From Deltaproteobacteria bacterium (lineage in GTDB: Bacteria > Desulfobacterota_D > UBA1144 > Nemesobacterales > UBA2774): a stretch of 64,000 nt of DNA. Of this stretch, positions 1 to 48,385 are shown one piece after another. The position numbers were made by a program, and so were the translations under genes. The notes under the pieces were generated by a model. The model was not told where the DNA came from and ran no database searches. It saw only the letters and a list, made by a program, of their open reading frames with translations. The DNA is taken from contig JAVKFU010000015.1 of the NCBI GenBank assembly GCA_040223695.1, positions 106,534-170,533 of the forward strand, given 5' to 3'. Every line of letters starts with the position of its first letter. The stretch's first letter is position 1.

Positions 1-1267
1 GGGTATAGAGCTCGCGCGTGAGCATTTGCCGGACATAGCCATAATAGACCTAAAGCTGCCCGATCTCGACGGTCTCAACGTCTTGCAGCACCTCTCCAGG
101 ATTGACCCTCCTCCTATATCGATAATAGTCACGGCCCATGGTTACGTTGAAGCCGCCGTTTCCGCAATGAGGCTGGGCGCGTACGATTTCGTCGAAAAAC
201 CCTTTCCGGTAGATAAAATAAAAATCATTATTCAAAACGCGCTCAGCTCAGCCAATCTCAGGAAAACCGTGGACGTATCGACTAGAAGGGAGCAAAAAAA
301 ATACGGCTTCGATTCGCTTGTAGGCGAAAGCGAAGTTATACGCGATTTAACGGCGCTCATTAGAAAGATCGCCGCCGGGGAGCCCAAGATGGTGCTTATT
401 ACGGGGGAGACCGGTACCGGTAAGGGCCTCGCGGCAAAAATACTTCATTACAACAGCAAGAGAGCTGATAAGCCTTTTCTGGAAATGAATTGTGCGGCGA
501 TTCCGGAAAATCTGCTGGAGAGTGAGCTTTTCGGTTATGAGGCCGGGGCGTTTACGGATGCGAAAAAATCCAGGTCCGGGATTTTTGAGGACGCGGACGA
601 AGGGACAATTCTGCTCGATGAAATCGGTGATATGAGTCTTAACCTCCAGGCAAAGCTAATTAAAGTGGTGGAGGAGAGAAACTTCAGAAGGCTGGGGGGT
701 AAAAAGGATATAAAGGTGGATTTACAGATAATCGCCGCCACGAATAAAGACTTAAAAGAGCAGGTAAAAAATGACTTGTTCAGACAGGACCTGTATCACA
801 GATTGAATGTAATTAATTTAGAGATGCCCGGCGTAAGCGCACGGAAGGAAGATATTCCCATTCTGACGGATTACTTCGTCAAATATTTCAACGATGATCT
901 TAACAAAAATATAACAATCATCCCCGAAGAAGTTCGAAAATCATTCCAGCTGTATGACTGGCCCGGCAACGTCCGGGAGCTGAGAAGCACTATAGAGAGG
1001 GCGATGATACTGAGCGAAGGCGAGGAGTTGAATCCAAACTACATACAGCTTGAGATCGAGAATGAAGACATAGAAGTCAGGACGGAAGGAAATAAAATGA
1101 AGCTTGAAATTTCCCTCGACGACTCCTCCCTCGACGATATAGAACAGAAGATAATCAGGCAGACGCTCGAACAATACGACTGGAATCAAACCAGGACGGC
1201 GAAAGCTTTGAAGATAAACAGGCAAAACCTCAGATACCGAATGAAAAAGATGGGGCTTCTAAGCTAA
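1..1267 (+). CDS. sigma-54-dependent response regulator (NtrC/Fis family), 5'-partial. The receiver domain continues upstream of the window.
   Basis: The frame is open from nt 2. It has a receiver motif (IIDLKLPDLDG), an AAA+ sigma-54 activator core (LITGETGTGKGLAAK, ESELFGYE, GAFTDA) and a C-terminal Fis-type HTH (QTRTAKALKINRQNLRYRMKKMG). Confidence 0.85.
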   Translation, partial: GIELAREHLPDIAIIDLKLPDLDGLNVLQHLSRIDPPPISIIVTAHGYVEAAVSAMRLGAYDFVEKPFPVDKIKIIIQNALSSANLRKTVDVSTRREQKKYGFDSLVGESEVIRDLTALIRKIAAGEPKMVLITGETGTGKGLAAKILHYNSKRADKPFLEMNCAAIPENLLESELFGYEAGAFTDAKKSRSGIFEDADEGTILLDEIGDMSLNLQAKLIKVVEERNFRRLGGKKDIKVDLQIIAATNKDLKEQVKNDLFRQDLYHRLNVINLEMPGVSARKEDIPILTDYFVKYFNDDLNKNITIIPEEVRKSFQLYDWPGNVRELRSTIERAMILSEGEELNPNYIQLEIENEDIEVRTEGNKMKLEISLDDSSLDDIEQKIIRQTLEQYDWNQTRTAKALKINRQNLRYRMKKMGLLS

Positions 1268-1299
1268 TCATAGACTATGCGGCCTCTTACGAAATGCCT

Positions 1300-2104
1300 C
1301 TATTTTTTGTCCGAGATAATTACAGCGGCCTCAGGCACAAGCAGTCTGAACGCCAGACTTTCCTGAAGATAAAGCTCTACTTTCGTTTTGCCGTGATCCG
1401 TATATCCGATGGAAATATCCCTGCCTATTACCAGTTCAAAGTCTCCTCCCCTCATGCTTATTACAAGCGCGCCCTTGATCGCAGGCGCCCAGACTATGGG
1501 GCCGTCTATGAGTCTTCTGATATGGTTTATAATTGGGTATCCGCCCTCGACAGTGCTTGCCAGTCCTTTATAGTGTCTGGGACTGAGCGCTATCGCGTAA
1601 GGTCCGGTAACGCCTGTTTCGCGAAGTACCTCCACGGCTTCCGTTATTGCTACGGGGTAAGAGCCGTACCCTGCCTTATTTACCACAGGATCATGCACGC
1701 TGCCTGAGCAAATGCCCTCGAATCCCGCACCCGAGCTTCCGAAGAATACTATACTATCCTCCGCGACGGCAATTTTCTGCGCTGCTTTACGAACCGGGTC
1801 GATCGGGGTCCTCAAGACCCCTGTTCACCGAGTCAAGCTCATCGATTGACAGCTCAAACGGCACTTTAAGCTCTACCATAGGTCTCACTATTCTTGTGTG
1901 CGCCTCCACCCCTGCGACCGGTCCTTCTTTTTCTTTCCTGTACCTGCCCAGATTTACCGCGGAGTAATCCCATCCCTCGGGCCCCCTGAAATCCACCAAT
2001 TTACGGGCCGCGAGATAACTCCTCAAGGTGTGTTGTGCTTCTTCCTCTATTTCCGACCATGCTTCTTCGGTGATGGGTGCCAGTTCTCTTTTGAGGTCGT
2101 TCAT
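1300..2104 (-). CDS. Family-1 encapsulin shell protein (linocin M18-like), interrupted by a frameshift near 1800-1820.
   Basis: ORFs 1787..2104 (N-terminal half, MNDLKRELAPITEEAWSEIEE..GPEGWDY..) and 1300..1815 (C-terminal half, ..GYPIINHIRRL..RGGDFELVIGRDISIGYTDH) together align collinearly with the HK97-fold encapsulin sequence recalled from Thermotoga. The frame switches at a GGGG/CCCC run (1805-1821). Confidence 0.8.
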
Positions 2105-2476
2105 GGTTTTTCTTCTCCTTTAAGACTCCCGATATTGAGGGACTCTCCCAAGGCTTTATCCCTATCGTTTCCCTCCGATTCCTCCTTGTCCGCTATGGGT
2201 CCCTCGGTAAAAAGATAATCCCTAAGCTGCTTGTCGAAACCCGGGTCTTTCCTCCTTAACCACTCAAGGGACATGGCGGCATGCTCTTTTTTGCTCTTCA
2301 CGGTTATGTTCGAGAATCTTTCTGAGCTCCTCATCCCCGGTTGCGTCAATGCGCTGCTGATACCAGTCGATCGCCTCCAGTTCCTCTATTAAAGAAACAA
2401 TACCCCTATGCAGCTCCAGCGTACGTTCACTCAGTTTTTCCAGGGGTTCATGAAAATTTGCGCTAGCTTCAGCCAT
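2101..2476 (-). CDS. Encapsulated ferritin-like protein (EncFtn) cargo with a C-terminal targeting peptide. It is frameshifted in a T6/A6 run at 2287-2292.
   Basis: ORFs 2264..2476 (..EAIDWYQQRIDATGDEELRKILEHNREE) and 2101..2349 (KEHAAMSLEWLRR..FTEGPI..SLNIGSLKGEEKP) become one EncFtn-like protein if one A is removed. The C-terminal GSLKG-type motif is typical of encapsulin cargo-loading peptides. The gene lies immediately upstream of the encapsulin gene with a 4-nt overlap. Confidence 0.75.
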
Positions 2477-2542
2477 TTGTTTCCTCCTGTAAAATATGCT
2501 TTGGATAGACCTGTGCTCACCAACTGTAATAAAAAATTAACC

Positions 2543-3436
2543 TCACGATTCTTCCCGCTCCCCTCGTTTGCTTCTCATCAACTTTATCGGAATAGGAAGC
2601 TTTTCATTGTAGATTTTGAGCTCCAGAATGTCTGCCGGAAGGGTTATCTTGTTTTCTAAAAGAGCCTTCTTGGCCTCGTCCATAACGTCATTCTTAATCT
2701 CGAGATCATCCTTCCTGTAATCAAAAGTATCGACCCAAAAGAATACGCGCATATTGATCGTGCTCGTGGCTAGATCTTCAACGTAGACTACAGGCGCCCT
2801 TTCTTCTCCCAATACCCCGTCAACTTTACTGATAGCTTCTATTATTACCTTCCTCGCGTTATCAACATCGTCCTCATAATCAATGCCGATCAAAAATTCG
2901 TATCTTAAAAATCCGTCCCTTGTGTAATTGATAAGAGGTGTCTTAACTACCATGGCATTGGGCACATATACATCCTTTCCATCAAATGTCTTTATGCGGG
3001 TGTTTCTGAGGTCAAGCGCTTTTACTATTCCGAAGGTATCCCCCGTCTCTACCTTGTCACCGATATTATAGGGCCTCGCGAACGCAAGTATAATCCCCGC
3101 CAGAAAATTCTCGCCGATATCCTTGAAGGCAAAGCCTATGATTAAAGCAGACACGCCCGCTCCGGCTATGAGACCTCCGGCAATGCCCCCGAGACCGAGC
3201 ACGAACATACCCAGGATAATTCCCGCTACTATGAGCGACCACTTGGACAGCCTTCCGAGAAATCTTGCCAGCAAAGGATCGTCGATACGAGACGAAGCCC
3301 CTTTTGTAATTAAACGGCTGATTTTAGCGCCGATTAAAACCATAATGATGAGGATAATCAGCGCGATCGCAATCTTGGGAACCAATACGAGGAAAGTTTC
3401 CCAATAGCCCTCGAGTATCTGAGCCATCTCATTCAA
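2543..3436 (-). CDS. Mechanosensitive ion channel protein, MscS family.
   Basis: N-terminal TM helices followed by an MscS beta-domain signature (FAFKDIGENFLAGIIL...GDKVETGDTFGIVKALDLRNTRIKTFDGKDVYVPN). Confidence 0.8.
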   Translation of the reverse strand: MNEMAQILEGYWETFLVLVPKIAIALIILIIMVLIGAKISRLITKGASSRIDDPLLARFLGRLSKWSLIVAGIILGMFVLGLGGIAGGLIAGAGVSALIIGFAFKDIGENFLAGIILAFARPYNIGDKVETGDTFGIVKALDLRNTRIKTFDGKDVYVPNAMVVKTPLINYTRDGFLRYEFLIGIDYEDDVDNARKVIIEAISKVDGVLGEERAPVVYVEDLATSTINMRVFFWVDTFDYRKDDLEIKNDVMDEAKKALLENKITLPADILELKIYNEKLPIPIKLMRSKRGEREES

Positions 3437-3510
3437 TTTTCATTGTCTCCCGATCAGTTGAACTGCTTTATAGAGTTATAAAAAAATGTACGAGTTTAAG
3501 CCGGCTGATC

Positions 3511-4455
3511 TCAAGCCGGTCTCTTCTCTCCGCCGGATGCAAATTCGGTGGCTTTATCTTCTTTATCATTCTCAGTTTCTGTGTTCTTTTTGCTGAAAAC
3601 CGTCTCCAGAGGCTCCTTGAATGTGAGTGTGCGATAAGGAAACGGAATCTCGATTCCGGCTTCGTCGAGCGCCCCTTTGACCGCGGCCACCACTTCGTCA
3701 CGGGACTTTCTGATCTCGAGCGGACTCGAACCGGTCCACCATGTAACTTCAAAATCTATGCTGCTCGCGCCGAAGGCCTGTGCGAATATCTGGACTTCCC
3801 TGCTGTTATCGACACTATCGAGGCCCTCGACAGCCTCCTTTATTACCGCCCTCGACTCATCGACATCCTCCCCGTAGGCAACTCCGCACATTACCGTAAT
3901 ACGCCTCAGATCAAGGTCCGTTCTGACCTGCACCGGGTTTTTAAACAACATTGCGTTCGGTATTACGATACGCTGACCGTCGACCCTTCTTATGTAGGTG
4001 TCACGAATGTTGATGTCTTCCACAAACCCTTCCATGCCCTCGCATTCTATGAAATCCCTCAATTGAAAAGGCTCTCGGAGCAGTATCAGTATTCCGGCGA
4101 GAAAGTTCTCGAATATATCCTTGAAAGCAAAACCTATCGCGATCGAACTCAAACCTATGACAGTCAGCAACTTAGCCGGCGTGAAATCGGGGAAAATGAT
4201 CACCGCAGCAACCATGACGCCAATAAGCCATATAAATATGTAGCTAAGTTTCCTGAATAATTCGGATAGTGAGTCGCGGAGCCTAATACGCCTGAAAAAA
4301 GAGTTCAGAACCCGGTCGACCAGGCGGTATATCAACCAGGTTATAAAAAGCACGATTAGCGCTATGAGAATTTTTGGAAGGTGGGCGAGAAAGCTTTCAC
4401 CCATCTTGGTCGCGCTTTCCAGAATGATATTTACAGGTTCCATAATGTTCTCCAT
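3511..4455 (-). CDS. Mechanosensitive ion channel protein, MscS family (tandem paralog).
   Basis: Same architecture and motifs as the neighbouring gene (FAFKDIFENFLAGILIL...IPNAMLFKNP). Confidence 0.8.
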   Translation of the reverse strand: MENIMEPVNIILESATKMGESFLAHLPKILIALIVLFITWLIYRLVDRVLNSFFRRIRLRDSLSELFRKLSYIFIWLIGVMVAAVIIFPDFTPAKLLTVIGLSSIAIGFAFKDIFENFLAGILILLREPFQLRDFIECEGMEGFVEDINIRDTYIRRVDGQRIVIPNAMLFKNPVQVRTDLDLRRITVMCGVAYGEDVDESRAVIKEAVEGLDSVDNSREVQIFAQAFGASSIDFEVTWWTGSSPLEIRKSRDEVVAAVKGALDEAGIEIPFPYRTLTFKEPLETVFSKKNTETENDKEDKATEFASGGEKRPA

Positions 4456-4527
4456 AATCCGCTTTTCCCGTTAACGAGTTTTTATAAGGACTCGACGACC
4501 ATCTAATGCCGTACTTATTCTATAATT

Positions 4528-6129
4528 CTACTTATTTATCAATTTTAGTAAATTCAACGAAGTATTCTTGAGCTTATCGGGATTCGGCATTTTTCCCAGC
4601 CTCAGCAGTTCTTCAATCGCCGCCATTTCCCGGTCCCTCTTATTTCCGCCTGCGGCCAGGACCTTGCCTTCGCTGACGAAGAAGGTAATAAAATCCTTAT
4701 TGGAGACGTTTCCCCAGGTTATGAGATAATCCCAGGATTCCGCGTGTCCGACGTAGCGGAAATTAAGCCCTGCCTGCGCGGTCCAGAAAAAAGGAACCAA
4801 GATCGAGGGTATTCCGTTTTCAAGCATGTTAACCGCGGCGTGTATGCCTTCCTGCTCGGCTGTCCGCCAGTGTTCTATTCTGACATGTTTTCCGGTTTCC
4901 ATGTCGGGATAGGAAGCTATATCCCCCGCCGCATATATATTTTTCGCCGCGCGGTAGGCTTCGTCCACTTTTATACCTCCGTCCGGATCAAGTTCGAGGC
5001 CTTGTATGAAATCCGTTACGGGCTCGACGCCTATTCCGACTATTACTAGCTCGGCCTCTACCTCATCCCCGTTGTCCAGGATCACTCTCTCAACCTTGCC
5101 GTTCCCTTTGAATTCCGAAACTTTGCGCTCAAGCTTAAAAGTTACGCCGTTATTTTCATGCTCGGTTTTGAACATACCGCCTATCTCCGCTCCGAAAACT
5201 TTTTCAAAAGGCACCGATTCCCTTCCGATTACCGTCACGCTGATACCCCGCTCCGTTAGATTGTGCGCGGTTTCCATGCCTATGAAACTCGCCCCGATGA
5301 CAGCGGCTCTGGAGATTTTCTCGGCAGAGTCAATTATCCTGTCCGCATCGCTGAAACTCCTCAGTGTAAATATGTTTTCCAACCCCGAGCCGGGAGCGTC
5401 CAGCTTCCTTGCACTGCCCCCTGTCGCAACTAGGACCTTATCGTATTCAAGCTCCGTGCCGTCATCGAGCCTGACTGTATTTGTAGAGCCGTCAAGCCTC
5501 ACGACTTTGCGACCAAGCACCGTTTCTATTCCGTATTCATCGTAGAAGTCCTCGGACCTGAGCGGCATCCATTCCTCTTTCGCTTCGCCGCTCAGATACT
5601 CTTTGCTCAAATTGGGGCGATCATAGGGAAGCTTGTTCTCACGTGAAATCATGATTATGCGTCCCTTGTAACCGTTTTCACGGAGGGCCTGAGCCGCCGC
5701 GTAGCCCGCTGCACCGGCTCCGATTATAATAAAAGTCCTTTTATCAATCGAGGGCTCCGCCTTTGACATCTCGGGTTTACGCCTGCCCTTGAATTCCTCC
5801 GGGAGCATTAAAACGAGATTATCGCCTTGTGTTTTCAGTTCGTAAGAGACAAGCGCGTCCAGTGCGGGGGGCTCCATTAAATCCCCGGTCTTCGCATTGA
5901 AACAGGCATGGTGCCACGGACATACAATCCTGCCGTCGCTCAAAATACCCTTTTCGAGAGGAGCTCCGTAGTGTGTACAGAACGCGCTTACGGCAAAGAA
6001 TTCACCGTCGATTCGGCTTATCAGCACCTTGTCGTCGGAGTCATCCAGGGCAACTGTTTTCATTTCATTATCTTTAAAATCTTCCAGTTTTCCAACAATT
6101 ACTTCTTTCATTTTCACGAAACCTCCCAC
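4528..6129 (-). CDS. Rieske [2Fe-2S] domain fused to an FAD/NAD(P)-binding pyridine nucleotide-disulfide oxidoreductase (ferredoxin-reductase/AIF-like).
   Basis: Rieske ligands CTHYGAPL...CPWHHACF at the N-terminus. Rossmann motifs IIGAGAAGYAAA and VIGASFIGMETA. A C-terminal reductase dimerisation region. Confidence 0.8.
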   Translation of the reverse strand: MGGFVKMKEVIVGKLEDFKDNEMKTVALDDSDDKVLISRIDGEFFAVSAFCTHYGAPLEKGILSDGRIVCPWHHACFNAKTGDLMEPPALDALVSYELKTQGDNLVLMLPEEFKGRRKPEMSKAEPSIDKRTFIIIGAGAAGYAAAQALRENGYKGRIIMISRENKLPYDRPNLSKEYLSGEAKEEWMPLRSEDFYDEYGIETVLGRKVVRLDGSTNTVRLDDGTELEYDKVLVATGGSARKLDAPGSGLENIFTLRSFSDADRIIDSAEKISRAAVIGASFIGMETAHNLTERGISVTVIGRESVPFEKVFGAEIGGMFKTEHENNGVTFKLERKVSEFKGNGKVERVILDNGDEVEAELVIVGIGVEPVTDFIQGLELDPDGGIKVDEAYRAAKNIYAAGDIASYPDMETGKHVRIEHWRTAEQEGIHAAVNMLENGIPSILVPFFWTAQAGLNFRYVGHAESWDYLITWGNVSNKDFITFFVSEGKVLAAGGNKRDREMAAIEELLRLGKMPNPDKLKNTSLNLLKLINK

Positions 6130-12985: not shown

Positions 12986-14308
12986 ATGTGCAAATTTCTA
13001 TCCGTCTTTCTTATACTTGCCCTATTCTCATGCGGGGCGAATTATACTCCCCGCGCGCCTGAAGAAGTTCCTTTCCTCAAAAGGGCGCAGACCCAAAGCA
13101 GGGGAGGGCTCACTGTAACCGCCGCCGTTTTGAGTCGGGAGGAGAGTGAGGAGGTCTTCGGTGTCGACCTTGCGGCCAAAGGTATACAGCCCGTGTGGCT
13201 TGAAATAGAGAACAACACTGATGCGCCGTTCGCGTTTATGCCCATCGCGCTCGACCTGGATTATTTCTCCCCGAACGAGGTTTCCTGGCTTAACCATTTC
13301 AAATTCAACCGGTCGTTAAATAGAAAAATGGACGAGCATTTCTCTGAACACAGCATAGAGGTCGAGTACATAATCCCGGGCGAAAAAGATAAGGGTTTTG
13401 TATATTCAAACCTGGATCCGGGCATAAAATACGTAAACGTAACACTGTATCAGCTTGACCGCATAGAGAGGTTCGTGTTCTTATTCGAAGTCCCGGGCAT
13501 ACAGCCCGACTATCAAAACGTCGATTTTGAAGAGCTTTACTCAAACGATGAGATAGTAAATATTGAAAACGAAAACGACCTCAGGGCGGTATTGGAGAAT
13601 ATTCCCTGCTGTACTGTAGATAAGAAGGGGGAGGGTGAAGGGCACCCGGTTAACATCATTCTTATCGGTGATCCCGATGATACGTTCTCTGGAATAATAC
13701 GCCGCGGGTGGGACGTTACCGAGGCCGATACCGATTCATTCGATATAGATCTCAGGAAAATGTTCTCGACCGCGCGTTACAGGACATTCCCTATGACTAG
13801 CCTCCATATGTACGGGCGAAGACAGGACATTAGCCTTCAGAAATCACGACACGCGGGACATACGCCCTACCGCCAGCGGAACCAGATGCGCCTCTGGCTG
13901 ACCCCGTTCAGGTACAGGGGAGATAGTGTCTGGATCGGTTCTGTGAGCAGGGACATAGGCTCCGATTTAAGGGTGAGGAAGTACTGGTTCGCGGCGCAGG
14001 AGATAGACCCCGATATCGACGAAACTAGGGATTATGTAGTAGAGGACCTCGTACTGTCTCAGCAAGTACACAAGCTTGGTTATGTGAAAGGCACAGGAGC
14101 TGCAAACTCCGAGAATCCCCGTACAGACCTTTTCGGCCACCCCTGGTGGTCAGACGGATACCGGGCCGTATTTCTATTCGGTAAGGATTCTATCACCCTG
14201 GGCGACATGGAATTTTTTCCCTGGGAAGATATTCATTCAGTTCCTTCCCTGGAGCTTGAATTCGGCAATCGGAATGAAAGAAATGACGACAGGGGGTTAG
14301 GGAATTAA
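12986..14308 (+). CDS. Lipoprotein of unknown function (paralog A of a tandem pair).
   Basis: Signal peptide with lipobox (LALFSCG). Shares blocks with the next gene: EVPFL.R..TQ..GxTVTAAVLS..ES.EVFGV.LA.KGIQPVW, PCC, IRRGWDVTE and R.RN..RLWL.P.RY.G..VWIGSVSRDIGS. Confidence 0.6.
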   Translation: MCKFLSVFLILALFSCGANYTPRAPEEVPFLKRAQTQSRGGLTVTAAVLSREESEEVFGVDLAAKGIQPVWLEIENNTDAPFAFMPIALDLDYFSPNEVSWLNHFKFNRSLNRKMDEHFSEHSIEVEYIIPGEKDKGFVYSNLDPGIKYVNVTLYQLDRIERFVFLFEVPGIQPDYQNVDFEELYSNDEIVNIENENDLRAVLENIPCCTVDKKGEGEGHPVNIILIGDPDDTFSGIIRRGWDVTEADTDSFDIDLRKMFSTARYRTFPMTSLHMYGRRQDISLQKSRHAGHTPYRQRNQMRLWLTPFRYRGDSVWIGSVSRDIGSDLRVRKYWFAAQEIDPDIDETRDYVVEDLVLSQQVHKLGYVKGTGAANSENPRTDLFGHPWWSDGYRAVFLFGKDSITLGDMEFFPWEDIHSVPSLELEFGNRNERNDDRGLGN

Positions 14309-14309
14309 G

Positions 14310-15719
14310 ATGACCGCTGTTCGCGGAGACACTCAGGTATTGAGGCTGTTCTTTATATTCTTGATCGGCTGTCTGCCTTTAATGAAAGTCGGTTGCGCCT
14401 CCTATTGCGCCACACAGAGCGAGGTGGAGAACGCTATGTTCAGCACGCCTCCGGCAAAGGGGTGTCGGGTCTATTCTCCCTCTCCCGACCCGTTGAGGGA
14501 AGTCCCTTTTCTCATGCGCAGCGAGACCCAGACCGAGGACGGCATAACCGTGACGGCGGCAGTGCTTAGTGACCCGGAGAGTCGGGAGGTTTTCGGCGTC
14601 AACCTTGCAAAGAAAGGAATCCAGCCGGTATGGATCAGAATCGAAAACGATACCGGGGCTCCCGTCACTCTTGTACATGTGGGAATAGACCCCGCTTATT
14701 TCTCCCCGAACGAAGCTGCTAACAGGAACTATATTTTTGCGAGTCCCGTTAACGATGAAATCAACGAATACTTCAACGAGCACGGAATCGGAAGAATGAT
14801 CCCGGCTGGCGGGGAATTATCGGGTTTCTTTTACACAAACTGGGACCCGGGCGTGAAATACCTGAACGTTAGCGTGTTCGGAGAGGACAGGGAGGAAAAC
14901 TTCCTCTTCTATTTAGAGATACCCGGGATAACGATAGACTTTCAGCGGGTGGATTGGGATTCCATTTACGGAGAGGAGGAGTTCGTGGACTACCAGAACG
15001 AAGACGACCTCCGCCGCGCGCTTGAGAGCGTGCCCTGCTGTTCGACGAGAAAAGACGGCACGGGAAAGAACGATCCGCTAAACTTTTTCGTCATTGGGGA
15101 GAGCGATCAAATATTGTCCGCTTTCATCCGGCGCGGATGGGATGTGACTGAGCCCATTACAGCGGGATCCGGGTGGAGGGCGTTCAAAGCCTTTTTCTCC
15201 GGGGCGAGATACCGTACTTCTCCAATGAGTAGCATATATGTATACAAAAGAGCTCAGGACGTAGGCTTTCAGAAAGCAAGATCCACAATACATGAGAGGA
15301 ATCATCTCCGGCTATGGCTTATGCCCGTAAGATACAAGGGCATGGATGTCTGGATCGGGTCTGTGAGCCGTGACATCGGCTCATACCTGACTATCAGGAC
15401 CCCATGGTTAACTGCGCACGCAATCGATCCGGATATTGATGAGGCAAGGGTGTACGTCGAGCAGGATCTTCTCTTCTCGGGGGCGGTCAGAAAATTCGGG
15501 TATGTTAAAGGGATAAAGCCCGCCACCCCGGAAAACCCCCACCGGAATTTTATGAAGCAGCCCTACTGGACCGACGGGTACAGGGCTGTGTTTATTATCC
15601 AGGAGGATCCCACGCACCTGAGTGAGCTCGAATTCTTCGACTGGGAATGGGCGGGTGAGAATTCTCGGGAAATGATCGAATACATTAAAAACCGAAACAA
15701 TAAAAAGACAGAAAACTGA
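14310..15719 (+). CDS. Lipoprotein of unknown function (paralog B of the tandem pair).
   Basis: Collinear similarity to 12986..14308, with hydrophobic N-terminus (LRLFFIFLIGC) that may be a signal peptide/lipobox. It starts 2 nt after the stop of paralog A. Confidence 0.6.
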   Translation: MTAVRGDTQVLRLFFIFLIGCLPLMKVGCASYCATQSEVENAMFSTPPAKGCRVYSPSPDPLREVPFLMRSETQTEDGITVTAAVLSDPESREVFGVNLAKKGIQPVWIRIENDTGAPVTLVHVGIDPAYFSPNEAANRNYIFASPVNDEINEYFNEHGIGRMIPAGGELSGFFYTNWDPGVKYLNVSVFGEDREENFLFYLEIPGITIDFQRVDWDSIYGEEEFVDYQNEDDLRRALESVPCCSTRKDGTGKNDPLNFFVIGESDQILSAFIRRGWDVTEPITAGSGWRAFKAFFSGARYRTSPMSSIYVYKRAQDVGFQKARSTIHERNHLRLWLMPVRYKGMDVWIGSVSRDIGSYLTIRTPWLTAHAIDPDIDEARVYVEQDLLFSGAVRKFGYVKGIKPATPENPHRNFMKQPYWTDGYRAVFIIQEDPTHLSELEFFDWEWAGENSREMIEYIKNRNNKKTEN

Positions 15720-21568: not shown

Positions 21569-22285
21569 CTATCTGGTCTGATGTGTATGATGAGCGTGTT
21601 TATCGCTCGTTGAAGGGATGAAGTGAATGGAGAAATTAACCAGCCCCACAAGAATTAAGATTATCCCCGCTACAACTGTCAGTCTCCTCGGCGCTCTCCG
21701 CATGCCCTTCTTGTATATAAAAGGGAATGCGGATAAGGCGGGTACTGTTCCGAGCCAGAATATGAAGAGTACCGCCGCTCCGTAGAGCGGGCTTTTTGTC
21801 GCTACCGACCCTATTACGAATATGTAGACCCAGCCGCAGGGGATGAATCCGTTTACAATTCCGAGTGTAAGGGACGCCGTTGGCTTGCTCTGCGTTAAGG
21901 ACCATTTTGCCGGGAGCCGGAGGAGTGAAGAGATGAACTTCGCCGGTATCAACTCAAGCGGCTTTCCCGTAATAAGCTTATAGCCTGTATAGATAAGGAA
22001 TGCCGATATTATTATTGCAGAAAATGTAGCTACAACGGGGTAGTTATTTGAGAGAAAAGCTTCCCCCAGGAGTCCCGCAAGTGCGCCGAGCGCCAGGTAG
22101 CTAAACAGCCGCCCTAGGTGATAGAGGCTCAGGTAGCCGAAATTATTGTTCACCGTAACGGCTATGGGCCCGCACATCGTAACACAGTGCGAGCTCCCGA
22201 GCAGGCTCGCTATAAAAACACCCAGCGGCACCGATAAAAAGGACCACTGCGCTATTAAATCATTAAATAAACCTGGGTCCGACAA
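21569..22285 (-). CDS. DsbD_2/UreH-like polytopic membrane protein. It is the last gene of the cco operon.
   Basis: About 6 TM helices with a conserved SSHCVTMCGPI motif characteristic of the cytochrome-biogenesis-like DsbD_2 family. The family assignment is from memory. Confidence 0.5.
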   Translation of the reverse strand: MSDPGLFNDLIAQWSFLSVPLGVFIASLLGSSHCVTMCGPIAVTVNNNFGYLSLYHLGRLFSYLALGALAGLLGEAFLSNNYPVVATFSAIIISAFLIYTGYKLITGKPLELIPAKFISSLLRLPAKWSLTQSKPTASLTLGIVNGFIPCGWVYIFVIGSVATKSPLYGAAVLFIFWLGTVPALSAFPFIYKKGMRRAPRRLTVVAGIILILVGLVNFSIHFIPSTSDKHAHHTHQTR

Positions 22286-23687
22286 GTTTTACGTCCTCGC
22301 CCGTTTTAATTGTATTGTCCTTAGGGTCAATGAAATTGAGTCTTATTGACCGTGTCCCCTGACTGCCCGTAACATCTTGAGGAAACTTTACGAAAAAGTG
22401 GACAGTAGCGTCCTTTCCCGCCTCAAGATTAATTATCTCGTTCTGCGAAACGATCTCGACGTTTTTTTTCTTCCATTCCTGAGGCAGCGTCATCTTGAGG
22501 CTTACATTGTCAAAAGTCTGATTTTTCATGTGCATTTTAAAGTGGTTTATTATTTGCTCGCCCTGCTCGTTTTTAATCACCTGAAAGGGAGAATCCTTGC
22601 CTCTTAGAACGGTGATGATTATATCCTCACGCTTCGATACGGAAAAAACGAGAGCCGCCATTACGGCGGCGAGCAGCACGGTATATATCGCTACTCTCGG
22701 TCTGAACCATTTCGTGGTCAATCTCTCGAGGCTGTTTCCCGTTGCGTATCTGATCAACCCCTTCGGCTTGTCGATCTTTTCCATTACCTCATCACAGGCG
22801 TCTATACAGGCGGTGCAGCCTATGCACTCGAGCTGAAGGCCGTTTCTTATGTCAATCCCCGTGGGACATACCGACACGCACTTATAACAATTTATACAGT
22901 CGCCCTCGGCCTCACCGTGCCCGGTTTTCCCCCTCCGGGGCTCGCCCCTGACCGGGTCGTATGAAACCGTAAGCGAATCGTCGTCCATGAGCACCGACTG
23001 GAACCTGCCGTACGGGCACATTATGATGCAGAACTGCTCCCTGAACCAGCCGAAGTCGAACAGAAAAACCGCTGTCAGAAAGGCCATTATGACAAAGATG
23101 GTCCAGTTCTGCTGCGGGTTGTGCCGGGTCATTTCCACAAGCCTGTCGGCGCCTACAAAATAGGCGAGAAAGCTGTGAGCGATAATCAGGCTCACTATAA
23201 GAAAGAGGGACCAGAGCACAGAGAGTTTAAAGAATTTTTTTATTCCCCAGGGCGCCCTTGCGAGGTTACGCTGCTGGATGTGGCTCCCGATAATCCAGTA
23301 CTCAAGCCTTCTGAATATACCGTCTATAAAAACAGTCTGAGGGCACGCCCATCCGCACCATACCCTTCCCCACACGGCGGTTATGAACGCAAGCCCTATT
23401 GTCAGAAACGCCAGTATAAAAAATATGAGAGGGGCGTCATGCGCGAAAAAAGTGAGACCGAATATAGAAAATTTTCTTTCTCCGATATTGAGGAGCAGGG
23501 CTTGATGTCCCCCGATTTTGATCCACGGAAGAAGGAGGAAAAAGATAACCAGAAAAATCTCGGTTACCGTTCTTGCTTGTCTCCAGAAACCCTTTACCCG
23601 CTCAGGGAATATAAAAACACGCTTGCCGGTCTCGTCCATTGTAGCCGGGCGTTCATCAGGCAGTTGTCTCTGATCCAGTACTTTCAT
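22263..23687 (-). CDS. ccoG: cbb3 oxidase accessory protein CcoG/FixG (membrane-bound 4Fe-4S ferredoxin).
   Basis: Motifs GRVWCGWACPQ and two ferredoxin CxxCxxCxxxCP motifs (CINCYKCVSVCP, CIGCTACIDAC). The start is chosen at the ATG that overlaps the ccoP stop (ATGA). The 39-aa Arg-rich extension in the ORF track is probably spurious. Confidence 0.8.
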   Translation of the reverse strand: MKVLDQRQLPDERPATMDETGKRVFIFPERVKGFWRQARTVTEIFLVIFFLLLPWIKIGGHQALLLNIGERKFSIFGLTFFAHDAPLIFFILAFLTIGLAFITAVWGRVWCGWACPQTVFIDGIFRRLEYWIIGSHIQQRNLARAPWGIKKFFKLSVLWSLFLIVSLIIAHSFLAYFVGADRLVEMTRHNPQQNWTIFVIMAFLTAVFLFDFGWFREQFCIIMCPYGRFQSVLMDDDSLTVSYDPVRGEPRRGKTGHGEAEGDCINCYKCVSVCPTGIDIRNGLQLECIGCTACIDACDEVMEKIDKPKGLIRYATGNSLERLTTKWFRPRVAIYTVLLAAVMAALVFSVSKREDIIITVLRGKDSPFQVIKNEQGEQIINHFKMHMKNQTFDNVSLKMTLPQEWKKKNVEIVSQNEIINLEAGKDATVHFFVKFPQDVTGSQGTRSIRLNFIDPKDNTIKTGEDVKLVGPRFI

Positions 23688-24253
23688 TTGCGCTCTATCT
23701 TCTCTCCCTGAGGAGCTTTCGCCCCGGGGGGATCGGTCCCCTGCAAACCATGTACGTAAACCGCGGTGCTCTCTATTACGTCCGCGGGTATGACGCCTTT
23801 CCACGGAGGCATACCCTTGTCGGGCACACCCTCGTTCACGACGGTAAGTATGGACGATATAGATCCGTCTCCGTGTATCCAGTACTCATCCGTCAGGTTA
23901 GGCCCGATAAGTCCCTGCCCCTTATCCCCGTGGCAGGGCATGCATTTGGCCATGAATTCCGCCTTCCCCTGCTCGGTAACTTCCCGGTTTGTAACCAGAG
24001 CGACCAGGTCCTCTTCGGTTTTTTCCCGGGCGGACCCGAGGGCCTCCTGCTGCTCCTCCCTTATAACACTCATCTCGCTCGCCAGCTCCTCGTCCAGCGT
24101 CGGTCCCCCCATAAACTGATAATAGACGAAATAGATAACCGCGAAAATTATGGTTATATAAAAGGTCGCAAGCCACCAGCCGGGGAGGGGATTATTAAGC
24201 TCTCTTATCCCGTCGTACTCATGATCTTTAATTAATTCGTCTTTTTCGGTCAT
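23684..24253 (-). CDS. ccoP: cbb3-type cytochrome c oxidase subunit CcoP/FixP, apparently mono-haem.
   Basis: CcoP N-terminus (DHEYDGIRELNNPLPGWW), one CMPCHG haem motif and a GMPPW Met-ligand region. It is only 189 aa. Confidence 0.75.
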   Translation of the reverse strand: MTEKDELIKDHEYDGIRELNNPLPGWWLATFYITIIFAVIYFVYYQFMGGPTLDEELASEMSVIREEQQEALGSAREKTEEDLVALVTNREVTEQGKAEFMAKCMPCHGDKGQGLIGPNLTDEYWIHGDGSISSILTVVNEGVPDKGMPPWKGVIPADVIESTAVYVHGLQGTDPPGAKAPQGEKIERK

Positions 24254-24393
24254 TGATTTTCCTCCTTTTTTGGCTCACCCTCATCTTCGAGGGGTAGCAT
24301 CTCCATTTCATGAATCTCCTCTTTCGGTCTCTTGAGAGCCCATATCACAAGAACGACAAATGCCGTTAAAAAGATAATCAGGGCTATTATCAC
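24250..24393 (-). CDS. ccoQ: Small CcoQ-like single-TM subunit. It is below the ORF-track size cut-off.
   Basis: A GTG-initiated 47-codon ORF (IIALIIFLTAFVVLVIWALKRPKEE...) lies between ccoNO and ccoP. Its stop overlaps the ccoP ATG (ATGA). Confidence 0.5.
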   Translation of the reverse strand: MIIALIIFLTAFVVLVIWALKRPKEEIHEMEMLPLEDEGEPKKEENQ

Positions 24394-24422
24394 TATTTCC
24401 GCATTCTGAAAATACGATAGAG

Positions 24423-26585
24423 CTACCTGTTTGATGTCGTTACCTCCTCGGTAGCGGTCTTTTTGCCGAGGCTCTGCAAATAAGCGATAAGCGCGACGAC
24501 CTCGGTGTCCTTTATCAAAGTAAGTGAGGGGTCCTGGCTGAGCAGCTCCTCGTATATTCGGGCAGCCTCCTTTTCCGCGTTTATGTCGGCGTCTGAAACC
24601 TCCCGGTCGTCGTAAGGCACACCCAGCATTTTCATCACGCTGAATTTCTTTCTCAGTATGTGATAATCGATTTTATTTGCCGCGAGCCACGGGTAAGAGG
24701 GCATGATGGAATTGGGCGTAATTTCCCTTGGGTTTATCATATGGCGGAGATGCCACATATCCGGATATTTACCTCCGACCCTGGCAATGTCCGGCCCCGT
24801 TCTTTTTGAGCCCCATTGAAAGGGCCTGTCATACATCGATTCCGCTATAGTGGAGCTTGGACCGTACCTGAGCACATCGAACGGGAGCTTCCTTATCATC
24901 TGCGAGTGGCACACGTAGCACCCCTCCCTGATGTAAATATCCCTTCCCGCGAGCTCAAGCGGCGTGTACGGCTCCGTTTTTTCAGCCGACGGGAGATACT
25001 TGTAGATCGAGAGAGTGGGTATTATTTCGATTACGGAACCCACCGCGATTGATATGAAAAGAAGCACGGTGAAAACGAGGCTAAGCGCCTCAAGTTTTCT
25101 GTGGCCGCTACCGACCGCCGTCGGGTCGGCTGAAAGCGGGGCGGCTTCAACTACGGTGACTTTTTTCTCCCTGGGCGCGTGTTTAATGGTTACCCATACG
25201 TTGTATATGAGCATGAGGAAGCCCGTGAGGAAAAGCGCGCCGCCTGCGAACCTGACCCAGTAAAGAGGCACTATTCTCATCACCGTTTCAACAAAGTCGG
25301 GATATACGAGCTGTCCGTTCTCGCCTATTGCCTGCCACATGAGCCCCTGAGTAATGCCGCTTGCCCACATCGAGATGTAGTACAGAAGAATTCCGAGAAA
25401 TCCTATCCAGAAATGCCAGTTCATGAGTCTCTGGCTCCGCATCTTCGTATTCCAGAGCTTCGGCACCAGGTAGTAGATTATTCCGAAGGTAAGGAACCCG
25501 TTCCATCCGAGTGTGCCGCCGTGCACATGGCCGATTATCCAGTCGGTATAGTGGGCGAGGGAGCTGACCGATTTTATCGACAGTAAAGGGCCTTCGAAGG
25601 TGGACATACCGTAAAAAGTCACTGCCACGGCCAGGAATTTAATAATCGGGTCCGTGCGGAGCTTGTGCCATGCTCCCCTGAGCGTGAGAAGGCCGTTAAT
25701 CATGCCGCCCCAGCTCGGCGCCCAGAGCATTACGCTGAAAATCATGCCGAGGGTCTGCGCCCAGTCGGGAAGCGCGGTATTCAAAAGATGGTGAGGCCCC
25801 GCCCATATGTATATGAAAACGAGGGACCAGAAATGGATGATTGAGAGCTTATAGCTGTAAATAGGCCTGTTGGCTGCTTTGGGCACGTAGTAGTACATCA
25901 GTCCCAGAAACGGCGTCGTGAGGAAAAAAGCGACGGCGTTATGGCCGTACCACCACTGAACGAGAGCGTCCTGTACTCCGGCGTACACAGGATAGCTTTT
26001 AAGAAACGCGACCGGTATTTCGATCGAGTTCACTATATGGAGCAAGGCCACCGTAATAATCGTGGCTATGTAAAACCATATCGCTACGTACAGATGCTTT
26101 ACTCTTCGTATGGCGATTGTTCCGAAAAAATTAGCGGCGAAGACTACCCAGACGACCGCGATTGCCACATCGAGCGGCCACTCAAGCTCAGCGTATTCCT
26201 TACTCATGGTGTAGCCTAAGGGCAGTGTAATCAGCGCGCCTACGATAATAAGCTGCCAGCCCCAGAAATGGAACTTGCTCAGAAAATCGGAGTAGTTACG
26301 TGTTTTAAGGAGCCTCTGCGTAGAGTGATATATGCCCGCGAAGATTATATTTCCGGCAAACGCGAAAATTGCAGCGTTTGTGTGGAGAGGCCTTATCCTC
26401 CCGAACGTAAGCCACGGGATCTCCAGATTTGCCGGCCAGAATGCCAGCTGGAGCGCTGCAAGAAGCCCGACCATAAACGCCGCCGCTCCCCAGAAAATTG
26501 TTGCATAGAGAAACATCTTTACGATTTCATCGTCGTAAACAACCTTCTCCAGAACTGTGGATTTAGGTCCGTTGTCCTGACTCAT
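24423..26585 (-). CDS. ccoNO: cbb3-type cytochrome c oxidase fused subunit I/II (CcoN-CcoO fusion).
   Basis: A 12-TM haem-copper oxidase domain with His ligands, followed by a CcoO-like mono-haem domain (EGCYVCHSQMIRKL...YPDMWHLRHMINPREI). Confidence 0.85.
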   Translation of the reverse strand: MSQDNGPKSTVLEKVVYDDEIVKMFLYATIFWGAAAFMVGLLAALQLAFWPANLEIPWLTFGRIRPLHTNAAIFAFAGNIIFAGIYHSTQRLLKTRNYSDFLSKFHFWGWQLIIVGALITLPLGYTMSKEYAELEWPLDVAIAVVWVVFAANFFGTIAIRRVKHLYVAIWFYIATIITVALLHIVNSIEIPVAFLKSYPVYAGVQDALVQWWYGHNAVAFFLTTPFLGLMYYYVPKAANRPIYSYKLSIIHFWSLVFIYIWAGPHHLLNTALPDWAQTLGMIFSVMLWAPSWGGMINGLLTLRGAWHKLRTDPIIKFLAVAVTFYGMSTFEGPLLSIKSVSSLAHYTDWIIGHVHGGTLGWNGFLTFGIIYYLVPKLWNTKMRSQRLMNWHFWIGFLGILLYYISMWASGITQGLMWQAIGENGQLVYPDFVETVMRIVPLYWVRFAGGALFLTGFLMLIYNVWVTIKHAPREKKVTVVEAAPLSADPTAVGSGHRKLEALSLVFTVLLFISIAVGSVIEIIPTLSIYKYLPSAEKTEPYTPLELAGRDIYIREGCYVCHSQMIRKLPFDVLRYGPSSTIAESMYDRPFQWGSKRTGPDIARVGGKYPDMWHLRHMINPREITPNSIMPSYPWLAANKIDYHILRKKFSVMKMLGVPYDDREVSDADINAEKEAARIYEELLSQDPSLTLIKDTEVVALIAYLQSLGKKTATEEVTTSNR

Positions 26586-26767
26586 TTATCCTTTTCCTCC
26601 TTCGAATCTTGATTTCTTGGTTCGGTCTCGTAATCATCTATTAACATTCTGTGACCGGGGGTCTTGAGGTCGTCCCACTGCCCCTTTCGTGCGGCCCATA
26701 TGAAGGCAAGCAGGAAAATTAACGCCATGGCTATAGAAATTCCAAGCGTCAAGAAAATTATATTCAC
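26582..26767 (-). CDS. ccoS: cbb3 oxidase maturation protein CcoS/FixS.
   Basis: A 61-aa single-TM protein (FLTLGISIAMALIFLLAFIWAARKGQWDDLKTP). Overlaps both neighbours by 4 nt. Confidence 0.75.
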   Translation of the reverse strand: MNIIFLTLGISIAMALIFLLAFIWAARKGQWDDLKTPGHRMLIDDYETEPRNQDSKEEKDK

Positions 26768-29217
26768 GTCTTCGCCACCTTTCTCTTGGTATCGAGAATC
26801 GTCTGTCCGTATAATGTAGAGCCGATCAGAAGCAGCGAGCTTAGCGGCATAAGGACCGCCGCCGCGAGAGGCGTTATAAAGCCCGTCAGCGCGAATCCCC
26901 CCGCAGCTACGTTATAAATTATTGAAAAAACCGTGTTTCTTCTTATGGTTTCGCCAGTCGCATTGCCGTGATCGATAAGGTCCAGAATTGTGAAAAGGTC
27001 GTTGTTGAGTATGTACGCGTCGGATACTTTGAGACTTTCCTCGACGCTCCCCTGTATTGCTACGCTCACGTCGGATGAGGACAGCGCGCCTGCGTCATTC
27101 AGTCCGTCCCCTATCATAAGGGAGTTCCGGTTTTCACTGATTATTCTCGATTTGCCCTCGGGTATTTCCTCCCAGTACGCCTGTGAGTATGGGATTTGAA
27201 GCTTATCGGCCACATGCTTCACATTATTCTCCTTGTCGCCGGAAAGTATGAAAACTTTATACCCCCTCACCACAAGCTCGTTTATTACGAACTTGGCGTC
27301 TTCTTTCAGCGTATCCCCCAGAACTATTTCCGAGACCGGTTTTCCGTCTTTATGGACCACTATTTTAGTAGTGATAATTTCGTTCAGATCGTTTTGGCCG
27401 ATTACACTATTCTCGGACGTTAACCGGTAATGGTGCCCGTCTGCCACGGCTTCAATCCCTTCGGAGTATATGTGTCTGAAATCTCTGACTTCGGGCAGCG
27501 GGTAGTTGTTGTCCTTGAGATGAGCTGTGAGGGTGCGGGCTATCGGATGGTTCGATTTCTTCTCTATTGCGAGGATTGCGGCATAGTCTTTCTCCGAAAG
27601 CTCCCCGGAGTTCCACTTGAGGATTTTGAATACCCCGTTTGTAAGCGTGCCGGTCTTGTCGAAGAAGATTTTTTCGACAGACGGGAGCTTCTCGAAGTTC
27701 CCGGCGTCTTTAATCAGAAATCCCTTGGCCATCCCCGATTTCAGCGACAGTCCGTAGGAAAGCGGCAGTGCGAATACAAAGGCGCAGGGACAGGATATAA
27801 GCGTAAAGGCGATTACCCTTTCTAGCGCCTCGGAAGTATTGTAAAGATATGATATAGTGAAGAACGTAGCCACCGCGGCGATTCCCACTATCAGTGTGAA
27901 GACCGTGGAGTATTTGTCGCTGTATGTCGAGAGGCCGATTTTACCCCTGTAATTGCTTTCGACCTGATCCAGTATCTTCCCGATTCTGGTGGATTTCCCG
28001 GTTTTGGCTACTTTAAGAACCGCTTCGTCAGACTCGAGTATCGAGCCTGCGAATACGCTGTCTTTCCTCCTGACTGTCTCGGGAATGTTCTCGCCCGTAA
28101 GCACGGACAGGTTTAGATCGGCGTTTCGGGATAAAAGCTCGCCGTCAGCCGGAACGCGCTCCCCTTTGTGGAGCTTTATCCTCTGCCCCGGCCTGAGATT
28201 CTCGACGGGCTGATAAAAGAACTGCCGAGCCTTATCATCCCATATAAGAACCCGATTGGATGAAAACAGGCTCCGGCTCACCGGTTCTTTTCGCACTACC
28301 CTGTCCTGTACCGTTTTAAGAAGATATCTGCTTCCGAGAAGGAGAAGCACGAATGCGGTTATCGAGTCAAAATATATCTGGTCGCTTCCGTTAAAGTAGT
28401 TGTAAGCGCTCAGTACGAAACCGATCACGATGACGAACACGATCGGTATATCGACCGTAGCGCGTTTCATTCTGAGTGAGCTCAGTACGCTCTTGTAAAA
28501 GGGATAAGCGCAGTATGTGACCACGGGCAGAGACAGAAGAAGGTTGAGCAGCATAAAGTTCTCCGCAAACACTCCCCCCGCGCCGGAATAGACCGCCGCC
28601 GAAAGGAGCATTATATTTCCTGCGCAAACTGCCGCTACAGATAGTCTTATGAGCGATTTTCTGTTTTCCCGCCGTTTTAATTCCCGCGCCTCCTCATCGA
28701 TCCTTACGGGATGAGCCCTGTAACCGAATTTCTTCGCTATTACGGGGAAGGATGAGAAATTCCGTTCGGGGGTGAAATTAACTGTTGCGGTATTATCGGA
28801 CATGTCGAGCGAGACGGATTCGATTTCAGGGGTGTAATCGGGGATTTTCTCTATCAGCCACAAACATGCCGCACACTCGATTCCCTCCACGTAGAAATTC
28901 ATGGAGAGGGGGCTTTCTGCCGCCGTGTATAATTCGATAAAACTTTTCTGATTCAGGTATTCATAGTTCTCGGTTGATTCCGTATCTATTGGCGCGCCCG
29001 TTTTTCCGATATCCTGGGCGTCTTTGATTTTGTAGTAATTATCCAGGCCGAGAGTGTGCAGAAGCTCATAGACGGACATACATCCCCTGCAGCAGAAATT
29101 CCCGGATTCGGAAACTACCGTGTTCGAGGAATCAAGCTCCTCCCCGCAATGCAGGCAGCGGGCGGATTCCGGTTTGCTTTTGTGAGCGCTGTCTCTGGAA
29201 ACTGTAGTGATTGCCAT
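26764..29217 (-). CDS. ccoI: Copper-translocating P1B-type ATPase CcoI/FixI.
   Basis: N-terminal Cys-rich and HMA-like region (ECAACLW), TM CPC motif (ISCPCAFVFALP), DKTGTLT phosphorylation site and a GDGLNDAGAL hinge. Confidence 0.85.
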   Translation of the reverse strand: MAITTVSRDSAHKSKPESARCLHCGEELDSSNTVVSESGNFCCRGCMSVYELLHTLGLDNYYKIKDAQDIGKTGAPIDTESTENYEYLNQKSFIELYTAAESPLSMNFYVEGIECAACLWLIEKIPDYTPEIESVSLDMSDNTATVNFTPERNFSSFPVIAKKFGYRAHPVRIDEEARELKRRENRKSLIRLSVAAVCAGNIMLLSAAVYSGAGGVFAENFMLLNLLLSLPVVTYCAYPFYKSVLSSLRMKRATVDIPIVFVIVIGFVLSAYNYFNGSDQIYFDSITAFVLLLLGSRYLLKTVQDRVVRKEPVSRSLFSSNRVLIWDDKARQFFYQPVENLRPGQRIKLHKGERVPADGELLSRNADLNLSVLTGENIPETVRRKDSVFAGSILESDEAVLKVAKTGKSTRIGKILDQVESNYRGKIGLSTYSDKYSTVFTLIVGIAAVATFFTISYLYNTSEALERVIAFTLISCPCAFVFALPLSYGLSLKSGMAKGFLIKDAGNFEKLPSVEKIFFDKTGTLTNGVFKILKWNSGELSEKDYAAILAIEKKSNHPIARTLTAHLKDNNYPLPEVRDFRHIYSEGIEAVADGHHYRLTSENSVIGQNDLNEIITTKIVVHKDGKPVSEIVLGDTLKEDAKFVINELVVRGYKVFILSGDKENNVKHVADKLQIPYSQAYWEEIPEGKSRIISENRNSLMIGDGLNDAGALSSSDVSVAIQGSVEESLKVSDAYILNNDLFTILDLIDHGNATGETIRRNTVFSIIYNVAAGGFALTGFITPLAAAVLMPLSSLLLIGSTLYGQTILDTKRKVAKT

Positions 29218-29631: not shown

Positions 29632-30114
29632 TCAATCGCTTAGCATCTTTTTCATTTTAAACCGCTCGAACCGAAGGCCTTTTCTTAAAGCCGTTTCGGT
29701 TTCGACGATTTCAAAACCCATTTTGAGAAAAAAGGGCTTTGATACCCTGCTGGCCTCGGTGCGAAGTATTATTATACCCGCCGATAGCGAGTGCGCTTCG
29801 AGTTCCCTGTAAATCGCAGTCGCAACCCCGGTTCGTGAATGGCCTTTCATTGTATAGAGTAAGGATATGTGGTCAACGGGGTTAAGGGCGCCGAATGCGA
29901 ACGGGCCGTCGGTGGCCTCGGCGACAAGCGTATATCCCGACTCGAGCAAATTCCCGAACTCCCCGGTCTCATCGGAAAAAGACGCCCAGACCCGGAGCCG
30001 CTCCGGGTCATAGTGTCCTTTGCCGAGCTCTAATACCGAGTCCCTGTAAACTTTGGCCAGTTTATCTATATCGGAGCCGGTGTATTGTCTTATCTTGATT
30101 TCGGAATGAGTCAT
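29632..30114 (-). CDS. GNAT family N-acetyltransferase.
   Basis: GNAT fold motifs. The start is set at the ATG that overlaps the stop of the upstream methyltransferase (ATGA). The ORF track begins 9 codons earlier. Confidence 0.6.
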   Translation of the reverse strand: MTHSEIKIRQYTGSDIDKLAKVYRDSVLELGKGHYDPERLRVWASFSDETGEFGNLLESGYTLVAEATDGPFAFGALNPVDHISLLYTMKGHSRTGVATAIYRELEAHSLSAGIIILRTEASRVSKPFFLKMGFEIVETETALRKGLRFERFKMKKMLSD

Positions 30115-47920: not shown

Positions 47921-48148
47921 GTGCTAAATATGAGAGAGCTACTTTCAGAAGCATTAAAGAAAATAGAAAAATTACCGCCTGACCTCCAGGATGAAATAGC
48001 AAAGCAGATAATGGATGACATCGAAAACGAGCGCAGGTGGAATGAAGCATTGGCCAGACCGCACCCGAAAATTGATAAGCCGGCGAAAAAGGCCTTGGAA
48101 GAATCTGAAGCCGGTAAAACCAAAAAATCGGGATTCGACGAATTGTGA
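47921..48148 (+). CDS. Putative type II antitoxin (addiction-module component).
   Basis: 75-aa acidic/helical protein (LSEALKKIEKLPPDLQDEIAKQIMDDIEN) with its own RBS. Immediately followed by a RelE/ParE-like toxin ORF. Confidence 0.5.
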   Translation: MLNMRELLSEALKKIEKLPPDLQDEIAKQIMDDIENERRWNEALARPHPKIDKPAKKALEESEAGKTKKSGFDEL

Positions 48149-48385
48149 AATCGGAGTTGACAGAAGATTTCATTAGATGTTTCAGGAATCTTCCCGAGAG
48201 AGTTAAACAGACAGCGCGAAAGAATTATAAGGTATGGAAAGATAATCCATACCATCCGGGTCTTGACAATCAGAGTAGGAATCGGATAGCGGGCTATGGG
48301 TGTTTTGAAGGTTGAAGAAAATACTGTGGTGTGGTTCTGGATAGGTTCTCACAGTCAATATGATAAGTTATTAAAGTCGCTGTAA
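48147..48385 (+). pseudogene. RelE/ParE-family toxin, frameshifted at a GGG run (48295-48297).
   Basis: GTG start overlapping the antitoxin stop. N-part ..RIAGYG then stop. Removing one G restores ..RIAGYGVLKVEENTVVWFWIGSHSQYDKLLKSL, the characteristic ParE/RelE-like C-terminus. Confidence 0.55.

Follow-up and report, generated by a model that had tools for sequence, protein, structure and literature searches.

Probable recent inactivation of an EncFtn/encapsulin operon in a Dadabacteria-like lineage

The closest described relatives of the locus reported here are the EncFtn cargo and encapsulin shell proteins of Rhodospirillum rubrum and Haliangium ochraceum. The ferroxidase centre of EncFtn comprises glutamate (Glu) 32, Glu62 and histidine (His) 65 in R. 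rubrum numbering, and Gly-Ser-Leu-Lys is the encapsulin localisation motif (PMC5012862). An intact EncFtn would be expected to oxidise Fe2+ at the di-iron centre formed by these three residues and to dock in the shell via its ...IGSLKG peptide, and an intact family-1 (HK97-type) shell protein would self-assemble and store the mineralised iron. Judged from family membership and from what is established for the system (PMC5012862), the ancestor of the operon described below probably encoded a standard two-gene EncFtn/encapsulin compartment for iron oxidation and storage.

The window (the whole stretch of 64,000 nucleotides analysed) carries an EncFtn and an encapsulin shell gene, each of which is interrupted and was compared with the described proteins after merging of its two ORFs. 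The window EncFtn aligned without gaps to residues 1-100 of R. rubrum EncFtn (Rru_A0973; PDB: 5da5) with E=3.7e-36. The two systems share the order of cargo and then shell, Glu32, His65 and the C-terminal IGSLKG peptide, and the R. rubrum tail SLGIGSLKGE aligns with the window tail ...SLNIGSLKGE. The window shell matches the R. rubrum type 1 shell (PDB: 9ry4, 9rzu) over residues 1-263 at 9e-81. Unlike the R. rubrum system, the window EncFtn has glutamine (Gln) at position 62 and a +1 frameshift, and the shell has a 2-bp deletion past codon 100; in contrast to the R. rubrum system, the window copy is therefore predicted to be non-functional. Comparison with the family-1 shell and EncFtn cargo of H. 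ochraceum (PDB: 7odw, 7oe2) gave E=1.9e-78 for the shell and 2.8e-33 for EncFtn, and again the window genes differ in being interrupted. The encapsulin of Thermotoga maritima (maritimacin; PDB: 3dkt) belongs to the same family-1 shell family (E=5e-46, residues 2-264); its sequence is more divergent, and truncation by a frameshift again sets the window gene apart. The phmmer matches to these solved HK97-fold encapsulin shells (9ry4, 7odw, 3dkt) are each nearly full length.

An earlier note on this DNA had described two ORFs per gene at 1300-2476, with EncFtn preceding the shell, and all four ORFs are present on the minus strand. The 5' ORF of EncFtn (2264..2476, minus strand) encodes 70 aa, of which residues 1-61 are authentic before the frame is lost past codon 62/63. 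The 3' ORF (2101..2349, minus strand; 82 aa as listed) is authentic from about position 2286 to 2101, reading KEHAAMSLEWLRR...SLNIGSLKGEEKP, and includes the targeting peptide. For the shell, the 5' ORF (1787..2104, minus strand; 105 aa) is authentic to position 1801 (...NRGLEDPD), and the 3' ORF (1300..1815, minus strand; 171 aa) from position 1800 (DPVRKAAQ...) to the stop at 1300. As read from the sequence, an AGGAGG ribosome-binding site (2483..2488, minus strand) lies 6 nt upstream of the EncFtn ATG (2476-2474), and the EncFtn stop and the shell start overlap in an ATGA (2101..2104, minus strand), a predicted case of translational coupling and operon architecture. EncFtn lies directly upstream of the shell gene and is co-oriented with it. 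The same arrangement was found in three syntenic loci of uncultured relatives, L008 (Logan: SRR17165184), L009 (JGI: 3300056877) and L012 (JGI: 3300031359); the two genes overlap by 4 nt in L008, as in the window, and by 8 nt in L009 and L012. A promoter and terminator scan around the operon revealed nothing exceeding shuffled expectation, and Rfam and tRNA scans of the whole window gave no matches. Three plus-strand ORFs (106-137 aa, 1294-2218), antisense to both genes, merely shadow the coding sequence on the minus strand and should be left out of any annotation.

Profile searches confirmed the family identity of both genes. The EncFtn 5' ORF matches Pfam PF22277 (EncFtn-like) at profile positions 2-57 (E=2.9e-23) and the 3' ORF at positions 55-85; the merged protein covers positions 2-85 of 85 (E=3.3e-40, 136.2 bits). 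It also matches NCBIfam TIGR04535 (encapsulin-associated ferritin-like protein) over positions 1-114 of 114 (2.7e-43), its 146.5 bits lying above the curated cut-off of 125 bits. Similarly, the shell 5' and 3' ORFs match PF04454 (Linocin_M18) at positions 1-100 (E=1.9e-32) and 101-253 (E=2.2e-49), respectively, and the merged shell at positions 1-253 of 253 (E=2.8e-85, 286 bits). Against NF041155 encap_f1, the equivalog profile for family 1 encapsulin shells, the merged shell scored 298.7 bits (3.3e-89, positions 1-260 of 261; curated cut-off 100 bits). The earlier note had named failure of the merged ORFs to align collinearly with the EncFtn and encapsulin families as a refutation of its reading; the alignment proved collinear and complete, and the full-length profile matches bear out its description of a classical operon of EncFtn and a family-1 shell in which each gene is frameshifted. 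Its observation of HNREE.KEHAAMSLEWLRR and of ...SLNIGSLKGEEKP at the C-terminus of EncFtn was likewise confirmed.

Neither gene is an uninterrupted ORF: EncFtn reaches a stop at 2264 after 70 codons, and the shell frame ends at 1787 after 105 codons, as against 268 aa in the orthologues. Of the EncFtn ferroxidase ligands, Glu32 and His65 are present and position 62 is Gln under any single-base repair. The C-terminal localisation peptide with its Gly-Ser-Leu-Lys core is present as ...ESLNIGSLKGEEKP (tail SLNIGSLKG), and in the unrepaired gene this peptide is found in the second, out-of-frame EncFtn ORF only. The operon is real and represents the known EncFtn/encapsulin system, in a new lineage and as a decayed copy. 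Its shell gene would be a family-1 member by descent, as a pseudogene, and not a functional member.

The shell gene is intact in all three syntenic loci, encoding 268 aa with ...DPDLDPV..., and EncFtn is intact (124 aa) in L009 and L012; the L008 contig ends within the 5' part of EncFtn, and the rest is in frame across the lesion site. The closest intact shells are 86%, 81% and ~81% identical to the window shell at the protein level, and operon DNA identity between the window and the three orthologues is 74-81%. A search of genome contigs with the merged shell protein detected only distant relatives (45-53% identity) and no close relative. Shared neighbours of the operon are one or two MscS channels, a convergent sigma-54 response regulator and histidine kinase, a cupredoxin and ChaB. 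A block common to four loci (window 1-6129, L001, L009 and L012) has the encapsulin operon and these neighbours inside, with the histidine kinase being of the HAMP type, and also holds a Rieske/FAD reductase, small ORFs and DUF892. The conserved block suggests a stress-response neighbourhood. Literature searches turned up neither encapsulins in Dadabacteria nor encapsulin pseudogenes, an absence that is not remarkable.

Other parts of the window were also inspected. A cbb3 oxidase cluster (21569-29217, minus strand) encodes a fused CcoN-CcoO protein of 720 aa with COX1 and FixO domains; flanking it are FixP, a FixG-like ferredoxin, DsbD_2 and a P-type ATPase. NCBI MEQ9618468.1 matches the fused protein at 100% identity, and one protein that clusters with it at 90% identity has been assigned to Candidatus Dadabacteria; CcoNO relatives carry the labels Candidatus Dadabacteria or Thermodesulfobacteriota. 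Two tandem paralogous genes (12986-15719, plus strand) encode proteins of 440 and 469 aa, each with a C-terminal LssY_C domain. An open frame of at least 945 aa (61163-64000, plus strand) continues beyond the window and gave no Pfam match at E<=1e-5.

Comparison with orthologous loci, proposed in the earlier note, revealed the nature of the interruptions: the three intact syntenic loci define both lesions. DNA alignment with L008, L009 and L012 placed the EncFtn lesion at 2287..2293 (minus strand), where the window has CAAAAAA and the orthologues GAAAAA or GAGAAA; in context, GAG-CAAAAAA-GAG is found in the window, compared with GAG-GAGAAA-GAG or GAG-GAAAAA-GAG in the orthologues. The lesion consists of one extra A in an A6 run (plus-strand T6, 2287-2292) and an adjacent G-to-C change (2293, G on the plus strand) that turns codon 62 from Glu into CAA (Gln). 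Codon 62 is never Glu whichever base is removed, and Gln results from the natural repair. All 120 of 120 EncFtn homologues have Glu at position 62, which corresponds, with identical numbering, to Glu62 of R. rubrum in the alignment to 5da5.

The shell gene has lost 2 bp from the leucine (Leu) codon of the conserved DPDLDPV segment (1800..1801, minus strand), outside a homopolymer: the window reads GATC--GAC, compared with GATCTTGAT in L008 and GACCTCGAT in L009 and L012. Glu62 and the shell Leu codon are kept in all three orthologues. The homopolymers listed in the earlier note (T6 at 2287-2292, G4 at 1805-1808, C4 at 1818-1821) are at the positions given there. Its claim that both genes are split at such runs is correct for the EncFtn insertion in the A6/T6 run, yet this is accompanied by the G-to-C change at 2293, and it does not apply to the shell, where 4 nt separate the 2-bp deletion from the G4 run and it falls outside the interval of 1805-1821 to which the break had been assigned. 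An alternative repair of the shell, in which the C4 run loses one C, yields a protein of 267 aa that reads ...DPIDPV... and needs extra events; it was rejected because undoing the single 2-bp deletion restores the ...DPDLDPV... of the orthologues exactly.

The +1 nt insertion in EncFtn, next to the Glu62-to-Gln change, would end translation after 70 codons, short of His65 and the targeting peptide, and the 2-bp deletion would truncate the shell past residue 100, with a stop after 105 codons. With neither product at full length, no functional compartment would be expected.

Outside the lesions, both genes appear to be under full constraint. At columns with a conservation of at least 95% across ~110 homologues, the shell of the window deviates twice, compared with 1-5 deviations in seven intact homologues, and EncFtn deviates by E62Q only. 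Relative to L008, dN/dS is 0.063 for the shell and 0.073 for EncFtn, with dS at ~1.2. Lineage-specific amino-acid changes (11 vs 15 for the shell, 5 vs 2 for EncFtn) are not elevated. Relaxed selection in the window lineage was thus looked for outside the lesions and not found, which fits a very recent inactivation. These substitution patterns indicate that the operon was under purifying selection for essentially its whole history since the split from L008.

A third gene that the earlier note had described as broken in the same way, at a homopolymer, turned out to be damaged differently. Three-frame translation and alignment to two Kovacikia plasmid homologues identified the toxin pseudogene of a toxin-antitoxin pair at 48145..48385 (plus strand), downstream of an intact putative antitoxin ORF of 75 aa (47921-48148, plus strand). 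Between HPGL and TIRVGIG, ~12 codons are missing from the toxin, out of frame, and at 48287-48289 it has a TAG stop in place of the tyrosine of a YRA motif that is invariant in the two Kovacikia homologues. Pfam gave weak HigB_toxin/ParE_like matches to the tail. This large deletion and nonsense codon, which are identical in the Logan contig described below, imply that genuine gene decay occurs in this genome. The toxin-antitoxin-like pair (47921-48385, plus strand) lies between ubiX (47358-47909) and ubiD (48444-50219), within a UbiA-UbiX-UbiD-radical SAM cluster.

We regard the operon as a pair of genuine, very young pseudogenes rather than as a sequencing error, with a probability of roughly 0.78. 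The reading that has to be weighed most carefully against this is that the organism has intact genes and the indels arose as consensus errors when a MAG was assembled from long reads or at low coverage. The source contig measures 769,923 bp, which suggests long reads, and the EncFtn lesion falls in the A6 run. The shell lesion has a GATC/CGATCG context, and methylation at motifs of this type can disturb some long-read basecallers. Furthermore, both genes are otherwise perfectly conserved, and two independent frame breaks ~490 bp apart in otherwise pristine genes are a striking coincidence under neutral decay. Since intact-looking constraint is also the pattern expected of an artefact, a modest share of the probability stays with this reading. 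However, 70 homopolymer runs of at least 6 nt (6-8 nt, 19 of them 7-8 nt) remain unbroken within 31 intact long ORFs totalling 43.9 kb, and no further split gene came to light. Of the three lesions, only that in EncFtn involves a homopolymer, and it also has a substitution: the shell has lost 2 bp outside a homopolymer, and the EncFtn lesion includes the replacement of an invariant catalytic residue.

A k-mer assembly, the 63,345-bp Logan contig SRR26209086_1147, provides a further argument against error. It equals the window without any difference over 12,104 bp spanning the operon, and in another 15,218 bp, which include the toxin, it differs by one substitution (51439, in a repeat) and no gaps. 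All three lesions, in EncFtn, shell and toxin, are reproduced, and the exact 105-aa shell product is also called on the Logan contig. It looks like a separately derived consensus that shares all lesions, but the Logan run and the MAG may go back to the same reads, and a systematic read-level error would then be shared. The sole mismatch and the end of the Logan contig (window 51730) fall within a non-coding region of ~1 kb (51364-52309) with three families of dispersed repeats, one of which (3 copies, 49 nt) contains the palindrome GAGCCGCAAAGCGGCTC. Protein records of the shell fragments exist from Logan only and not from NCBI, which holds proteins of neighbouring genes; MEQ9618453, MEQ9618468 and MEQ9618489 are NCBI proteins from the MAG of the window, which carries the label Deltaproteobacteria bacterium. 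The missing fragments fit with pseudogene flagging by NCBI. The species was seen in one sample only, and DNA-pattern scans of metagenome contigs across each lesion, with either allele allowed, gave no matches. On balance, we consider the artefact unlikely. Of the two options left by the earlier note, systematic homopolymer indels or decay, the evidence favours decay, with lesions that are real and, given the lack of relaxed constraint, very recent.

Some readings accept the lesions wholly or in part and differ in what they make of them. A real G-to-C change combined with an artefactual frameshift would give a natural Gln62 variant of the di-iron centre, or the double knock-out might reflect recent positive selection for loss of the compartment; we give such scenarios a slight chance. 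Slighter still is the chance that the lesions are real but polymorphic, with the MAG consensus having taken a loss-of-function allele that coexists with intact ones through strain heterogeneity or ongoing adaptive loss. The very young inactivation, the nature of MAGs as population consensuses and the one mismatch between the two assemblies, which indicates some ambiguity in the data, would agree with this, but no alternative allele was detected in any searched collection and the mismatch falls in a repeat, not in the operon. Polymorphism is a refinement of the pseudogene explanation and does not contradict it. Programmed recoding or phase variation, whether the ribosome shifts by +1 or transcription slips at CAA-AAA-A or the A-tract serves as an ON/OFF switch, appears almost negligible in probability. 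In the +1 frame, re-pairing of tRNA-Lys on AAA-A could restore ...QKEHAAM..., yet all three orthologues are in frame without an A6 tract (GAGAAA or GAAAAA) and any repair leaves Gln in place of the invariant Glu62. Slippage usually needs a longer tract than A6, which speaks against recoding as well, and the shell would need its own +1/-2 shift at GAT-CGA-CCC, a site that lacks a slippery sequence.

The analysis establishes the family membership and collinearity of the two genes, their exact lesions, the intact syntenic orthologues, the lack of further frameshifts and the match between the two assemblies. Beyond this, we infer that the lesions are present in the cells and not just in the reads, that the operon has no function and that the ancestral compartment stored iron or protected against oxidative stress. 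For the rest of the window, the locus provides no evidence of assembly-wide homopolymer errors. The earlier advice to treat other truncated starts with caution is not supported: the 70 homopolymer runs are unbroken and other ORF pairs are separate genes. Three further suspected split genes (21569-24253, 29632-31323 and 40932-42814) were dismissed after each of their ORFs gave a full-length match to a different family. As the assembly shows no systematic homopolymer error, the starts and lengths of genes in the rest of the window are reliable.

In annotation, both genes are best entered as pseudogenes of the well-known EncFtn/encapsulin system. Biologically this is a small data point that opens no major question. 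It concerns a Dadabacteria-like lineage with a conserved block of EncFtn, encapsulin, MscS and sigma-54 two-component genes, one member of which would have just lost its compartment.
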